A stretch of DNA of 18,891 nucleotides from positions 1 to 18,891 of the forward strand of contig JBBRSP010000054.1 in assembly GCA_038245295.1 (NCBI GenBank). Direction: 5' to 3'. Below the pieces are notes generated by a model that saw only the letters and a program-made list of their open reading frames with translations, was not told where the DNA came from and did no database searches. The translations under genes were made by a program, and so were the position numbers. Shown piece by piece: positions 1 to 7,779 of this stretch (position 1 is its first letter; every line of letters begins with the position of its first letter). Source of the stretch: Candidatus Binatia bacterium. GTDB lineage: Bacteria > Desulfobacterota > Binatia > HRBIN30.

Positions 1-150
1 CAGGTTGCACGGGCTCTCGGCGTCTCTGTGCCAACTGTGCTGCGCGGCGTGAGCCGAGCCCCGACGAGGGCGTCGCGTTTCGCCATCGACCTCGAGCAGA
101 TCGCTGGGGAGTACATCTCCCATCTCAACTCAGTCCGTCACCCTTTGTGA
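1..150 (+). CDS. 3' end of an upstream gene with a C-terminal helix-turn-helix (possibly a REP-associated/Y1 transposase with an HTH tail); partial
   Basis: Frame 1 is open from base 1 to TGA at 148-150 and reads QVARALGVSVPTVLRGVSR..., matching the HTH pattern xARxLGVSxxTVxR. It is not in the ORF track because the start lies outside the window. The transposase identity is inference. Confidence 0.55.
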   Translation, partial: QVARALGVSVPTVLRGVSRAPTRASRFAIDLEQIAGEYISHLNSVRHPL

Positions 151-175
151 GCTGGCGGTCAGATCCGTCAGTTCG

Positions 176-226
176 AATTGCTATCGGTCGAGACTTGAGA
201 AAGTTGTTACAACGTCCCCCTCGGAA
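176..226 (+). repeat. Left 51-bp inverted repeat
   Basis: aattgctatcggtcgagacttgagaaagttgttacaacgtccccctcggaa is the reverse complement of 2398-2448 with 1 mismatch. It contains the internal palindrome GTTGT-T-ACAAC. Confidence 0.95.
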
Positions 227-282
227 AGCCCGTTGGGGAAAAGTAATTGACGTCAGACAATTTTGGATGAAACGGTGGGCTG

Positions 283-1017
283 ATGCGCATCCGAGGACAA
301 ATGTATATTTCTAGTCGGTATGCTTGCAGAGAATGGTGGTCACTGGAGATAGCGGTGATCGTCATCACGGTTCTATGCGGAGCTTCTGGGTGCATACCCT
401 ACTGCGGTCGTGGCGGAGACTATTCACAGCAACCCTTACGCCTGTTGGACGCGGAGGATAAGCACGAAGTCAATAGTGCGTTGCTTGTCACGATGGGGGG
501 GGGTGGGATCGGCATCGTGAGCGCTCATGGGTCCGGGGGGGCGGGGCTTCGTGGTGCGCTGCGGATCGAACGCGCGATCCGTTTCAACCGAGGCGACGCC
601 CCCGACTTTCACATTGGGTTCATGTGCGGCCTGATTTCCCCCTGGGCTGGAGCTGGTTTCGGCGGTGGGGATGCCCTAGTTCTGGCTATCGCACCTGGAT
701 ACGAGCCCACTTGCTTCGACGTGGACTCCGTAACGAAGACGGCGTTGTGGCCCTGGGCCCCATTGCTGCACCGTGTAAGCCCAGACGCTGCGAGCAGCGC
801 GGTGACGAGGTTGAGACGGATAGCAGAGCTACTAAAGCAAGGGGCAGTCACGGGGCGCGACGATGTCTATTCGATTTGCCGTGAGAACTTAGGACGAAAC
901 GATGAGGAGTACCTCGTCGCTCTTAGTCAAGAGGACCGTCACCTGGTGAATTCGTTCATCGACGAGGCGATCGCTTCGATCGAGGCAGCCGAGGGTGCGG
1001 GCGGTGATTCTCGTTGA
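283..1017 (+). CDS. Hypothetical protein, probable lipoprotein
   Basis: 244-aa ORF (alternative start at 301). Hydrophobic stretch IAVIVITVLCG is followed by the lipobox-like ASG-C. No family recognised. Confidence 0.6.
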   Translation: MRIRGQMYISSRYACREWWSLEIAVIVITVLCGASGCIPYCGRGGDYSQQPLRLLDAEDKHEVNSALLVTMGGGGIGIVSAHGSGGAGLRGALRIERAIRFNRGDAPDFHIGFMCGLISPWAGAGFGGGDALVLAIAPGYEPTCFDVDSVTKTALWPWAPLLHRVSPDAASSAVTRLRRIAELLKQGAVTGRDDVYSICRENLGRNDEEYLVALSQEDRHLVNSFIDEAIASIEAAEGAGGDSR

Positions 1018-1123
1018 GTAGGAGGGCTCCCAGAGGGATGTGTAGTTGCGATTCTCGCAATTCTCGATCGATGCGAGGAGGAGCAGACCTACCTGACGAG
1101 CGGCATAGCGGCGCGCGGCGGTG

Positions 1124-1144
1124 AAAGGGGATGACCCCCATTTT
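1124..1144. repeat. REP-like 21-bp imperfect palindrome (AAAGGG-N5-CCCCCATTTT)
   Basis: aaaggggatgacccccatttt. Its reverse complement matches 17634-17654 at 16/21 positions, differing only in the central 5 nt. Confidence 0.6.
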
Positions 1145-1146
1145 GC

Positions 1147-1373
1147 AGCTCTCTCGTGCTGACACTGCAGACAACCAGGGTAATCCACGCCCCCTCCCGA
1201 CGGCAAGCAGTGGTTACGATATGGGTGCGTTTGAAGGCGCGAGACCTCCGGGATGTGCAATCGATTCCTCCCCGATCAAAAAAACGGGATGGCCAATCGC
1301 GTACGGAGCTGCTTTGATCGCGATTATCGGAATCCGATTCAGGGTGACGCAACAGCGTCGTGAGGGGAGATAA
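1147..1373 (+). pseudogene. C-terminal fragment of a choice-of-anchor-Q-like surface protein with a MYXO-CTERM-like sorting signal
   Basis: The frame of ORF 1131..1373 reads DNQGNPRP...GYDMGAFE (choice-of-anchor Q terminal motif DxRGxPRP...DIGAFE), then GCAI, a hydrophobic segment and RR. There is no N-terminal part; the only ATG comes from the palindrome at 1131. Confidence 0.65.
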
Positions 1374-1377
1374 ACGT

Positions 1378-2544
1378 ATGCCCTTCGAGTCCAAGACTGC
1401 GATTGTCTGTTTTCTTAGTGTTCTGGGTGTCTGCACGCTCGCAGTCCCCGCAAGCGGTGCGGTATACCGCGACGGGGTCAGGAGCTGTCTCGTCGCGGCG
1501 CCCTCGGACACACAAGTCGGGAACCTCGATTTTTTTGTGGCCGAAGACGACGATCACGGATGCGAGCTTTGGGTTACCGACGGCACCGAAGATGGAACCT
1601 CGATCCTTGAGGTATACCCAGGGGCGCGGAACGCGTTCGACGGCGAGTATCCGATACTCTTGAATTTTAAGAATCGGCTGATTTTCACCGCCGATGACGG
1701 CCAGCACGGTATAGAACTCTGGCAGAGCGATGGGACACCGACCGGCACCGCGCTCTTAAAAGACATTTGCTCGGGTACTTGCTCAGGCTTCGACCTTAGT
1801 CCGCAATTCGCGATCTTTGCCAGACTCGGTGACGTGCTACTGTTTGTTGCAAACGATGGAGTGCACGGCGCTGAACTGTGGAAGACTGACGGCACCGAAT
1901 CCGGCACTGTGCTCGTGCGTGACATAAATCTTGGACCCGCGGATGGTTTCTTCTTCGCACAGGACTATCACGACTACGTTCCATTCTTCACGCCGTACAA
2001 CCGACTCATTCTATTTGCGGCGCAGGATGGTGCGTTGGGTTTCGAGCTGTGGCGTACCGATGGAACCACGAACGGCACCACTCTCGTAAAGGACATCAAT
2101 CCAGGCCCCACAAGTTCCCTCGTCGACCATTTGGGCACCGTAGTCAATGAGGAGCCGTTTCCAGAGGTGAATCAGGTGGTTACTTTCACTGCTTATGTGG
2201 GAGTGGAGCCGGGCACCTGGCAGACCGATGGTACCGCGGCTGGCACTCACCCCACAAGCGAGTCAAGAGCAGCGTCCCAACAAGGGGGCTCGTCTGCGGG
2301 CGGGTGCTCGATTCAGTCGCCAGCAGACGGGCGACGGGGTTGGGTGACCGTTTTGATCTTCTCTCTCGTCGGAGTCGCGATTCGGGGATTCCGGGGATTC
2401 CGAGGGGGACGTTGTAACAACTCTCTCAAGTCTCGACCGATAGCAATTTTCGAAAGCCGCCCCGGGGCCGCAGTTCGAAGGAAGCGCGTGCCTGCCGATC
2501 ACGCCGGCCTGCGAGTCCGCAGGGCGCCAAACCTCGAGGTTTGA
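1378..2544 (+). CDS. ELWxxDGT repeat surface protein with signal peptide and MYXO-CTERM-like anchor
   Basis: Repeats ELWVTDGT, ELWQSDGT, ELWKTDGT, ELWRTDGT and TWQTDGT. N-terminal signal peptide. GGCS...WVTVLIFSLVGVAIR near the C-terminus. RBS-like gaggggag precedes ATG 1378. Confidence 0.88.
   Translation: MPFESKTAIVCFLSVLGVCTLAVPASGAVYRDGVRSCLVAAPSDTQVGNLDFFVAEDDDHGCELWVTDGTEDGTSILEVYPGARNAFDGEYPILLNFKNRLIFTADDGQHGIELWQSDGTPTGTALLKDICSGTCSGFDLSPQFAIFARLGDVLLFVANDGVHGAELWKTDGTESGTVLVRDINLGPADGFFFAQDYHDYVPFFTPYNRLILFAAQDGALGFELWRTDGTTNGTTLVKDINPGPTSSLVDHLGTVVNEEPFPEVNQVVTFTAYVGVEPGTWQTDGTAAGTHPTSESRAASQQGGSSAGGCSIQSPADGRRGWVTVLIFSLVGVAIRGFRGFRGGRCNNSLKSRPIAIFESRPGAAVRRKRVPADHAGLRVRRAPNLEV
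2398..2448 (-). repeat. Right 51-bp inverted repeat
   Basis: ttccgagggggacgttgtaacaactctctcaagtctcgaccgatagcaatt is the reverse complement of 176-226 (50/51). Confidence 0.95.
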
Positions 2545-2792
2545 GCCGTTTGCAAACTGCAAATCGTCCGATCATCGATGATCGAGCGAGTTGCAAACCG
2601 CAGATCGCCAAAACCTCGAGGTTTGAGCGCTTTGCAAACCGCAGATCGCCCAATCACCGATGATCGAGCGAGTTGCAAACGGCAGATCGCCAAAACCTCG
2701 AGGTTTGAGCCGTTTGCAAACCGCAGATCGCCCAATCATCGCTGATCGAGCGAGTTGCAAACGGCAGATCGCCAAAACGTCGAGGTTTGAGC
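2525..2792. repeat. Tandem array with an 82-bp period, built from two alternating 41-bp subunits
   Basis: Constant 26-mer GAGCnnnTTGCAAACnGCAGATCGCC at 2543, 2584, 2625, 2666, 2707 and 2748 (first copy slightly diverged). The copies are separated by alternating 15-mers (a)AAACCTCGAGGTTT and (c)RATCATCGATGATC. Confidence 0.95.
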
Positions 2793-3075
2793 AGGTCCAC
2801 GGTGCCGGGGGGTCGCACATCCAGTCTGGCGGTCGCGGTTCAAGAAACGCCGCCACTCGTTGTCGAGACTAACGTCGTTCCATGCGTCACGCGGCAGCCC
2901 GAATTGCTCGAGAGCATCCTCCGCCACTTGGATCCTCCCTTGGAGCCACTGTCGCTGCTCAAGGGGAACTTGGCGTCGCGCTATTTTGTCACCCGGTCCC
3001 GTCATCCCGGCGACGCGGATCCGCGTTCACCCACCTCGTCGTCAACACCTCCGGCGTTATCTTAGGTTGGTGCAA

Positions 3076-3100
3076 CCGGCCCATGTGTCAGATGGGCCGG
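3076..3100 (-). terminator. Hairpin just downstream of the exonuclease gene (possible weak terminator)
   Basis: ccggcccat-N7-atgggccgg forms a 9-bp stem 13 nt after the stop codon. The U-tract is poor. Confidence 0.35.
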
Positions 3101-3113
3101 GCGTGGTGCTAAT

Positions 3114-3839
3114 TCACATCTGGGTCGATCGGTACACATGTGCCGTGGCGATCACGTCGCAGGCACAGTAGCGCGTTACTTCGAGGATTTTTCCGTCGGC
3201 GACGGCTTCGCCGACCTTCGAGCCATCCATTTGATCTTTCGGCGAACGGAACCCGTATCCGAGCGCGTAGGCGGCGAGCGGGTAGCGCGAGGCGGCGCCG
3301 GTGAAGGTGACCACGTCTGACAGGTCGAGATGCATCTGCGGCTTGAAGCGGTTTTCGTTGGCGGCGCGGATGACTACATCGCGGCCTTTGCGTACGCCGT
3401 GGCGGATCGAGCGGTGTACGAGCACCGGAAGATCGAAGCCGCGGCCGTTGTAGGTCACCATGAAGGCGTTCGACTGGGCCAGATGTTGCTGCAAGCGGGC
3501 GCCGAAGACTTCGAGGAGATGTTTCTCGTCGTTGCATGGCTCGAGCAGGCACTCGACCGAGCTTTCATCGTCAGGGCGGCCGTCTGGAACGCTGAGCGAG
3601 CTTGGCACGTCGCCGGTGTGTAACGAGCGATCAAAGGCGGCGGCGAGAATGCCGCTCTGCATATCGAGCCACGAGATGCAGGCGATGCGCGCCAGCGGGG
3701 GGCACAAGCCGGCGTAGTGCTCAGGTGTTTGCTCGCGCTTGGCGGCCATGGCCGTCACTGCATCGCGGTTGTCTGGGGTAAGGTCGGCGATCGTTTCGAT
3801 ATCGAAGACGAGAGCCGCGGGTGCAGTTGGATTGGCCAT
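3114..3839 (-). CDS. Predicted 3'-5' exonuclease related to the PolB exonuclease domain (DEDDy; DNA_pol_B_exo2-like)
   Basis: ExoI VFDIET, ExoII TYNGRGFDLP, HLDL, MDGSKV and ExoIII YCACDV motifs. Start placed at MANPTAP (3839). Confidence 0.88.
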   Translation of the reverse strand: MANPTAPAALVFDIETIADLTPDNRDAVTAMAAKREQTPEHYAGLCPPLARIACISWLDMQSGILAAAFDRSLHTGDVPSSLSVPDGRPDDESSVECLLEPCNDEKHLLEVFGARLQQHLAQSNAFMVTYNGRGFDLPVLVHRSIRHGVRKGRDVVIRAANENRFKPQMHLDLSDVVTFTGAASRYPLAAYALGYGFRSPKDQMDGSKVGEAVADGKILEVTRYCACDVIATAHVYRSTQM

Positions 3840-3891
3840 GGCGCCGCCTTGTAGCCAAGGCGGCGCCATTTGGCCATTTGGCCAAATGATC

Positions 3892-5013
3892 CTACTGCGG
3901 CATCAAACGCTGCAGCCGCTCGCTGGCTTCGACGTAGTCTTCGACCAGGTCGCGGATCACTTCCTTTACCGGGCGAACCGCATTGAGGCGGCCGACGATT
4001 TGGCCGATCGGGTTGAATTGCACGTCCTTCGCTTTGTCGGCGTAACGATGGTTACGCGACACGGCTTCCGAGGTCACCATGAATTGCAACGGCATTCCAA
4101 GCGGCTTCGGCGCACCTTCCGCTTCCCAGGCTTCCGTCCACTTGTTCTTCAACATGCGGCACGGCTTGCCGGTGAACGAACGCGAACGCACGGTGTCACG
4201 GCTGCCGGCCTTCAAGTACGAATCCATCTGCGCCGGCGGGCAGTCGGCTTCGGTCACGGTGAGCCAGAGCGAGCCCGTCCACACACCCGAGGCGCCCATG
4301 GCCATGGCCGCGGCGATCTGACGACCACTGCCGATACCGCCGGCCGCGAGCACCGGGGTCGGCGACACGGCGTCGATGACTTCCGGCCACAAGACCATGC
4401 TGCCAACCTCGCCGGTGTGTCCGCCGCCTTCGGTGCCTTGCGCGATGATGATGTCGATGCCGGCGGCCTTGTGCGACATCGCCTGTTTGGCCGACCCACA
4501 CAGGGCGGCGATCAGACGGCCGGCTTTGTGAACCTGCTCGATCACGTCGGGAGGCGGCGTACCGAGGGCATTGGCGATCAGTTTGACCTTGGGATGCCGG
4601 AGAGCTTCGTCGACCTGTGGCGCCGCGGTTGCGGCCGTCCACCCGAGCAATTCGTTCACCGGCTGATCACCTTCGGGCAGCTTGGGCACGCCGTTGTCGT
4701 CGAGGATCTTCTGGACGTAAGCACGATGTTGCGGCGGGATCATCTCGCGGAGCGAAGCCTCGAGCTTGACCGGGTCGATCTCGCCGATGCCTTCGTATTT
4801 GCCGGGGATGACGATATCGACACCGTAGGGCTTGTCGCCGACATGTTCGTCGATCCAGTTGAGCTCGGTGCGCAGCTGCTCCGGAGTGAAACCGACGGCG
4901 CCGAGCACACCCAGGCCGCCGGCGCGGCTGACTTCGGCGACGACGTCGCGGCAATGACTGAACGCAAAAATCGGCAGCTCGATCCCCAAGCGCTCACAGA
5001 TTTCCGTCTTCAT
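3892..5013 (-). CDS. Nitronate monooxygenase / 2-nitropropane dioxygenase family flavoprotein
   Basis: PIFAFSHCRDVVAEVSRAGGLGVLGA, AQGTEGGGHTG, VLAAGGIGSG, GVWTGS and SRSFTGKPCR. Strong RBS AAGGAG upstream of MKTEIC (5013). Confidence 0.93.
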   Translation of the reverse strand: MKTEICERLGIELPIFAFSHCRDVVAEVSRAGGLGVLGAVGFTPEQLRTELNWIDEHVGDKPYGVDIVIPGKYEGIGEIDPVKLEASLREMIPPQHRAYVQKILDDNGVPKLPEGDQPVNELLGWTAATAAPQVDEALRHPKVKLIANALGTPPPDVIEQVHKAGRLIAALCGSAKQAMSHKAAGIDIIIAQGTEGGGHTGEVGSMVLWPEVIDAVSPTPVLAAGGIGSGRQIAAAMAMGASGVWTGSLWLTVTEADCPPAQMDSYLKAGSRDTVRSRSFTGKPCRMLKNKWTEAWEAEGAPKPLGMPLQFMVTSEAVSRNHRYADKAKDVQFNPIGQIVGRLNAVRPVKEVIRDLVEDYVEASERLQRLMPQ

Positions 5014-5234: not shown

Positions 5235-5283
5235 TGTAGGGGGCGGTTTGGGAACCGCCCGGCGAACCGGGCGGTTCCTAAAC
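5235..5283 (+). repeat. GTAG-type REP element followed by a truncated inverted partner
   Basis: tGTAGggggcggtttgggaaccgccc (5235-5260), then gggcggttcctaaac (5269-5283), a partial reverse-complement copy. Confidence 0.75.
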
Positions 5284-5338: not shown

Positions 5339-5626
5339 TTACGAGGCCGGCTTGTGTTTGTTCCGCATGCAAGGGCAGCCACCTTCTTCCGCGGCCGCCT
5401 TTGCTTCGGGAGCAGCGCCTTTGGCAACGCCCGAGCCTTTGCATTCGGGAGCGCCACAACAGCCGCCGCCTTCCATACAACCGGCCGGCATCTCGCCCGC
5501 CTTGCCGTCACTCGGGGCCGTCTCGACGGCCGGGGCCTTGTTGGCCGCGTCATCTGCCCGGGCGGCCACGGCGATCCCACTCGTCAGCAGCGCCGCCATG
5601 GCCAAACTCGTTAGAAGTCGTCGCAT
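5339..5626 (-). CDS. Small secreted Cys-rich hypothetical protein
   Basis: Perfect AGGAGG RBS (5634-5639). Signal peptide MRRLLTSLAMAALLTSGIAVAARA. C-terminal CxxxxxCCxxxxC and CPCM/H motifs. Confidence 0.75.
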   Translation of the reverse strand: MRRLLTSLAMAALLTSGIAVAARADDAANKAPAVETAPSDGKAGEMPAGCMEGGGCCGAPECKGSGVAKGAAPEAKAAAEEGGCPCMRNKHKPAS

Positions 5627-5701
5627 GAGTGCACCTCCTACCGAATTTTACGCTACCGGCGGCCCACGGTCGATGCAAGCCAGCCCTTGGCGGGCAGGGC
5701 C

Positions 5702-5726
5702 GGGCGGTTCCCGAACCGCCCCTACA
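5702..5726 (-). repeat. GTAG-type REP element (inverted relative to 5235-5260)
   Basis: The reverse complement is tGTAGgggcggttcgggaaccgccc, near-identical to 5235-5260. Confidence 0.8.
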
Positions 5727-7521: not shown

Positions 7522-7779
7522 GTGTCTGGCAAATATCTGGTGTGGCGGGGGAAAGCCAAACATTTGGACATTTGTTCGAGGCCGGCGATTCTGGCCAAAA
7601 AGCCCGCGAAGATTGCGCTGGCCAAATGCCGAAAAATAGCCGACTGACGAGAAGCCCAAATGAAACGACGACCACAAGTCCGCACGTTCAAATGGCCAAA
7701 TGGCCAAATGACTCGGTAGACATTCCAAACCAACAGTGGCTATATCACGCCACAATTTGAGGATGGGGCAGATCTTCGC

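Follow-up and report, generated by a model that had tools for sequence, protein, structure and literature searches.

How do genes that look foreign to their host come to lie between two almost identical inverted repeats? In the genome of Candidatus Binatia bacterium, a block of surface-protein genes occupies such a position, and the answer decides whether the block is a unit moved by its repeats or older DNA on whose two sides they came to rest. The window, that is, the whole stretch of DNA analysed here, is 18,891 nucleotides long and is an entire contig (C54) of a 6.63-Mb genome with 62.7% GC; three sequencing runs of one study contain the window stretch as contigs, two of which are called X1 and X2 below, X1 being possibly the source sample. 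A preliminary description had regarded the block as transposase-less cargo bounded by 51-bp inverted repeats and a TTCG target duplication, either a non-autonomous element mobilised in trans or an invertible switch for surface proteins. The repeats themselves are real: 176-226 and 2398-2448 are reverse complements at 50/51 positions, and a longer alignment reaches 57 nt at 95%. TTCG does stand at 172-175 and 2449-2452, and cagttcgaa at 169-177 does recur at 2471-2479. Folded singly, the arms form no notable hairpin (z -1.6 and +1.9). An Rfam search of 1-4000 gave a single match at chance level, and scans of 1-3200 gave 0 promoters against 1.2 expected and 2 terminators against 2.9 expected. 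The features of the locus are collected in Table 1.

Table 1. Features at the left part of the window, in order of position
Feature	Position	Strand	Remarks
TIRYT/RAYT Y1 HUH transposase gene, 3' end, HTH-like tail	1-150	+	Stop 148-150; contig start cuts gene
TIRtron 3' end	151-231	+	Left arm 176-226; TIR core 190-219; CGTCCCC end toward block
Left TTCG, TIRtron-internal	172-175	+	Present in C60 and X1 contig
IS21-like right-end remnant, abutting TIRtron end	230-260	+	29/32 nt to terminus at locus L179 (genome G005)
Gene 1, orphan, probable lipoprotein	301-1017	+	Start uncertain, 283 or 301
Family-B TIR, degenerate	1035-1070	-	GGGG end toward gene 1; 91% to C34
Family-C dispersed repeat	1123-1152	+	13 matches in genome, some in tandem
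Choice-of-anchor Q fragment, 5'-truncated	1131-1373	+	C-terminal membrane anchor; ATG inside family-C repeat
Gene 2, ELWxxDGT-repeat protein	1378-2544	+	TIGR04534, E 2.5e-68
9-bp tandem, 2.8 copies, outer junction of right repeat	2379-2402	+	
Right arm, inverted internally truncated copy of 3' TIR	2398-2448	-	51/51 to C60 allele
Two-copy repeat starting TTCGAAAGCC	2449-2811	+	363-bp; 93% to C10:148364-148002

The repeat can be identified through the gene that precedes its left copy. Window positions 1-135 are 98.5% identical to the end of contig C9, whose reading frame is 44% identical to a full protein encoded on C2 with Y1_Tnp and Bac_DnaA_C (E 7e-34), although the Bac_DnaA_C match in the tail of this paralogue (E 2e-5) is below cutoff; the 49-aa piece of the family-A tail in the window matched no Pfam family. 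Positions 1-112 are 100% identical to the starts of C42 and C49, and on C42 this window-type tail is joined to a Y1_Tnp N-terminus (E 9e-10) with HLH and YIHLNP motifs. The HUH motif and the catalytic tyrosine are found on such sister copies, the window itself holding only the tail. The C42 gene is preceded by the same repeat in mirror orientation, a 30-nt core is common to this 5' TIR and to the 3' TIR of C54 and C60, and C46 is a 300-bp deleted copy that keeps both ends; an intact family-A transposase gene is nowhere assembled in this genome. By its sequence, the 51-bp repeat is the 3' terminal repeat of a multicopy TIRtron. Genome-wide, this TIR (family A) has 22-23 matches, and there are 17 for a second TIR family, B. 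A search of 51 other genomes of the order yielded no family-A TIR, and a metagenome scan with the transposase tail returned one distant locus among the matches listed. The earlier suspicion that the repeats are mobile-element ends tied to the upstream gene with an HTH ending was correct, 1-150 being the tail of a RAYT-type Y1 transposase. The term transposase-less holds for the interior of the block and fails just beyond it, where this cognate tail stands. In a sister TIRYT gene seen in runs X1 and X2, another element is inserted at 112-114 with a 3-bp overlap; one of its ends lies on C56:14013, and the element is presumably IS3-like, as its ends look.

The outer boundary of the TIRtron and its polarity can both be read from other copies. 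C60 and the window have 1-231 in common, and three different continuations follow about 230, those of C54, of C60 and of an X2 contig; as these diverge at 230-231, the TIRtron therefore ends at about 229-231. For polarity, 40 TIRYT loci were fetched as best-scoring matches (they are kin, including orthologues and same-genome copies), and the best inverted pair flanking each gene was sought without bias as to orientation. GGGGAC was outermost in 23 of the 40 loci and inward in none; the strict motif is absent in 10, seven of which by eye have a three-G form outermost, and 7 of the 40 have no inverted pair. Within this genome, all eight pairs of neighbouring TIRs less than 400 nt apart diverge. 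Judged across these copies, the outer end of the element is the one with AACGTCCCC, and its polarity is established. Since GGGGAC points away from the transposase in the relatives, both copies in the window face into the block, which therefore lies outside both ends and not between the ends of one element. This is the reverse of the direction assumed in the preliminary description, and it is also the reverse of a composite transposon or MITE, the outer ends of which point away from the cargo.

Inward of GGGGAC, the TIRs of loci L138-L172, otherwise unrelated in sequence, share a further property, an internal direct repeat of 9 bp. Lag-9 identity is 0.52 in 20 TIRs, against a mean of 0.29 and a maximum of 0.37 in 500 shuffles, the set being 18 hand-picked TIRs of relative loci, near relatives included, together with those of families A and B. 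Quentin et al. (2018, PMC6006769) describe Bac_DnaA_C as a domain that recognises repeats of 9 bp, and a TIR consensus that does not resemble a DnaA box; the internal repeat is a candidate site for the DnaA-like HTH.

The two TTCG copies do not form a target-site duplication, contrary to the first proposal, and each belongs to its own multicopy flank. The left copy is internal to the TIRtron and is carried also by an X1 contig of the other, commoner allele (171-205, depth 30.9). The right copy begins a separate repeat, which occurs on C10 without a family-A TIR abutting it and is preceded there by other sequence; the cagttcgaa at 2471 likewise lies within this C10-type repeat. TTCG makes up one half of the palindrome TTCGAA, by which the inverted repeat is prolonged across a 2-nt bulge, and TTCGAA at both sites is best read as putative junction microhomology. 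The C10-type repeat contains a 41/82-bp tandem array (2517-2792) of non-coding, palindrome-rich units with a fold z of -4.0, present in two copies in the genome (the other within C10:148002-148364) and in none of 40 relatives. A derivation of this 41-bp array from a TIR was considered and not accepted, the resemblance being only loose.

The right arm, which includes the inner 14 nt of the TIRtron 3' end, is matched by an X1 contig of 51 nt (depth 44.2). X1 contigs cover both junctions of the right repeat (588-2427 and 2419-2563), and an X2 contig (2089-2427) covers the inner one; because none of the contigs listed for these runs spans the repeat whole, the pairing of its flanks rests on the assembly. 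No RNA dataset with the window stretch was among the matches listed. At 153, 155 and 201 the left copy departs from the prevalent allele, which the right arm matches, and this weakly suggests that the right arm arose separately; three differences over some 90 nt, set beside none over 51 nt, do not suffice to tell the models apart.

Between the arms, the DNA is foreign-looking and layered. The interior has 57.8% GC, and the GC3s of genes 1 and 2 is 0.62, within the lowest 2% of 1,158 long ORFs (our own ORF calls) and below the genome median of 0.755; the six core genes of the window have 0.73-0.80. The atypical codon usage that had been noticed by eye, and with it the foreign look of the interior, is confirmed by these values. 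The statement that the interior encodes only envelope proteins proved too narrow, for the interior also comprises, besides a gene fragment, a TIR of family B, a repeat of family C and an IS21-like end. The terminus that this IS21-like end resembles lies downstream of rve and IstB_IS21 genes, and a terminal CA is a mark of IS21. Gene 1 has no Pfam or NCBIfam match and found only itself among 3,582 candidates; its nearest Atlas clusters are labelled 'lipoprotein/hypothetical' at 0.90, a weak lead, and it has by eye a lipobox-like GASGC. Copies of the family-B TIR precede TIRYT genes on C90 and C34; the family-C repeat was considered as a further TIR, but no transposase was found beside its copies. 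The choice-of-anchor Q fragment (GC3s 0.53) aligns to positions 36-56 of 58 of NF041518 at E 0.004, below cutoff. Gene 2 has a signal-like N-terminus and a C-terminal hydrophobic segment, and its homologues show 32-47% identity among the matches listed; from the hydrophobic segment its frame runs through the 9-bp tandem and the right arm to the stop at 2544. Taken together, the interior resembles not a clean cassette but the accumulated traces of several insertions and deletions.

Several repeats elsewhere deserve mention in their own right. Further along the window, short GGCCAAAT-type tandem repeats stand at gene starts (3867-3889 and 7688-7710), and a 24-nt inverted repeat (96%; 5240-5263 and 5699-5722) surrounds a small secreted-looking ORF at 5339-5626. 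At locus L020 (G000:C23:1-6000), repeated family-B TIRs, all with a similar ORF start after them, enclose an RHS/Tlde1 fragment and an Imm57 gene, in what looks like a toxin-immunity array with TIR junctions. A second facing TIR pair of this genome, L192 (G000:C5:158292-162646), is 4.3 kb apart and encloses an orphan anchored protein with GC3 of 0.57, its right junction having a triple tandem of the TIR outer end. The relative loci L139 and L140 have direct repeats (41 and 136 bp) with one copy outside the 5' TIR and the other 1.9-2.7 kb beyond the 3' TIR, an arrangement suggestive of a TIRtron that arrived together with the DNA downstream of it.

Alternative states of the locus were also sought. 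No empty site was found in this genome or in 40 relatives, which belong to other genera and match the window only in a PolB-exonuclease gene, ELWxxDGT repeats and short pieces. The block has no second copy, its interior occurring once in the genome and in none of the 40 relatives. Contigs of the left allele are unbroken over 171-494 in X1 and 171-288 in X2, and the X1 and X2 contigs contain no branch to an inverted allele at 176 or 227, which is weak evidence, contigs being prone to drop rare variants. The empty or inverted alleles to which the preliminary description had looked are found neither in the genome, nor in the 40 relatives, nor in the X1 and X2 contigs. It had itself allowed that the 51-mer might be a dispersed solo repeat with independent copies, and this is largely the situation found, with 22-23 family copies and an end that continues differently in C60 and X2. 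Of the orthologous loci L155 and L158 (88%), L158 has a TIR dimer at a site where L155 has none, and the genes between the facing TIRs are host-like and shared.

We consider it rather probable that the block is older foreign island DNA bracketed by two separate landings of TIRtron ends and not a unit moved by them. The identity of the repeats, their polarity, the origin of both TTCG copies and the layers of the interior were read directly; the order of events we infer, because no empty site was found. A surface-protein gene island would have been acquired and then hit by IS21 and by family-B and family-C repeats. A family-A TIRtron would have landed against the IS21 end and supplied the left arm, and a 3' end of the commoner allele would have landed in opposite orientation in the last codons of gene 2, leaving a 9-bp tandem at the outer junction. 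This landed 3' end would have been joined after 51 nt to a C10-type repeat via AATT/TTCGAA microhomology. As for the enzyme, the HTH tail of TIRYT is predicted to bind the two 9-bp direct repeats in the end, and the HUH core may nick single-stranded DNA near GGGGAC.

The same layout could have arisen at one stroke, if a single intramolecular TIRYT event had duplicated the 3' end while inverting or capturing the DNA next to it, the second copy being aborted after 51 nt. The arms are the same end at 50/51 (98%), as one event in cis would give; locus L145 offers a mirror case, in which two 5' ends, 96% identical over 234 nt, face each other across 4.4 kb and the second is truncated; and the facing layout recurs, in four of 21 relative loci (three events, with L155 and L158 orthologues), also in L140 and in the second pair on C5. 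Synteny between L158 and L155 stops precisely at a TIR end of L158, beyond which most of a DUF169 gene has given way to about 7 kb of other DNA. In this genome, 10 of the 38 kilobases that adjoin TIR ends on the outside belong to the lowest GC decile, where 3.8 would be expected, a count that includes the two flanks in the window and takes dimers twice. IS26, by replicative intramolecular transposition, produces inverted copies around an inverted segment (PMC4471558), but that route is DDE chemistry, and a TIRYT equivalent is absent from the literature covered. Moreover, the allele of the right arm is that of C60 and differs from the left one. The junction predicted for the state before inversion, in which reversed 231-300 would adjoin 2449, fails by eye to rebuild the sequence upstream of the C10 copy. 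Among the relatives, only 19 of 32 loci on each side have a lower GC near TIRYT than far from it, the mean difference being about 1 point. We regard this single event as rather unlikely; if it recurs, TIRtron ends would be a hotspot for the turnover of foreign surface genes. The general proposal that TIRYT copies its own end onto nearby DNA, and in this way captures, inverts or swaps foreign surface-protein genes between facing ends, is put forward tentatively, as an unlikely one. Were it true, a Y1 transposase would run gene turnover like that of ISCR elements or integrons, with the block as one cassette, which would explain the role of a large RAYT subclass and add a route for bacterial surface-gene turnover. 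Literature searches, with subscription journals outside their coverage, found no description of gene capture by TIRtrons.

The remaining explanations are far less probable than either. That the contig is misassembled, the right arm really continuing into a full TIRtron and two whole elements facing the block, would agree with the lack of a listed contig across the right arm and with about three TIRtron copies entering the same 51-mer (depth 30.9 of 44.2), but usual reads would be longer than such a repeat, and C54 and C60 appear to have been resolved separately; misassembly is very unlikely. A non-autonomous element with inverted ends enclosing genes, a TTCG duplication and mobilisation in trans would account for the near-perfect arms, the foreign interior and the adjacent transposase; it is hardly credible with the polarity reversed, with one TTCG internal to the TIRtron and the other from the C10 repeat, and with an interior that recurs nowhere in the genome or the 40 relatives. 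An invertible switch for surface proteins seems just as improbable: 51-bp arms could recombine by homology, but both genes lie wholly inside, inversion would alter only the tail of gene 2 after its anchor, no recombinase-like ORF is seen by eye among the ORFs of the window, and the unbroken left-allele contigs add their weak evidence against it.

With two separate landings as the preferred account, the TIRtron here is, as read, ordinary debris of an already named element. TIRtrons are named and, according to the literature search, biochemically unstudied, and the practical value of the locus lies in the placement of the end at about 229-231, a polarity fixed across relatives and the 9-bp internal repeat in TIRs. 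End position, polarity and 9-bp repeat provide substrates for a first cleavage assay.

Comparison with known systems, as described in the accessible portions of the respective papers, places these observations in context. IS26 resembles the present case in having inverted element copies around a segment, but it is a DDE enzyme with whole copies and an 8-bp duplication, whereas here there are an HUH enzyme, a 51-nt partial copy and no duplication (PMC4471558). TIRtrons (Di Nocera, De Gregorio, Rocco 2013, PMC3733652) have a RAYT-like Y1 transposase and long inverted repeats starting GGGG, and their TIRs are dispersed singly, in dimers and in clusters. The element described here agrees in its Y1 gene flanked by long GGGG inverted repeats and in its dispersed TIR singles and dimers (family A 23, B 17). 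The published GGGGWSAS motif is found in some TIRs only, other TIRs being unrelated (PMC3733652), and the motif here, GGGGACGT, matches 6/8 of it, that of the relatives being mostly GGGGACG. Facing same-end copies around foreign genes and the internal 9-bp repeat do not figure in the accessible part of that description. REPIN/RAYT systems (Bertels et al. 2017, PMC5581495) are comparable as regards TIR dimers, which here form long hairpins (z -12 and -17) and are gained or lost between host genes. They differ in that the single arms in the window show no folding and in that the transposase of the present element has multiple copies. TnpA-Y1 subclass 2.1 (Quentin et al. 2018, PMC6006769) has a Y1 core, a C-terminal Bac_DnaA_C/HTH tail and TIRs instead of REPs; the present element shares the Y1 core and the TIRs and may share the tail, membership being judged here from domains and not from the published tree. 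Subclass 2.1 TnpA-REP genes also occur beside prochlorosin genes, where diversification has been proposed although the authors find no strong evidence for causation (10.1101/2020.03.09.984088). The cargo of those loci is other than here, but they share with the window the same transposase class and truncated C-terminal copies adjoining variable genes.
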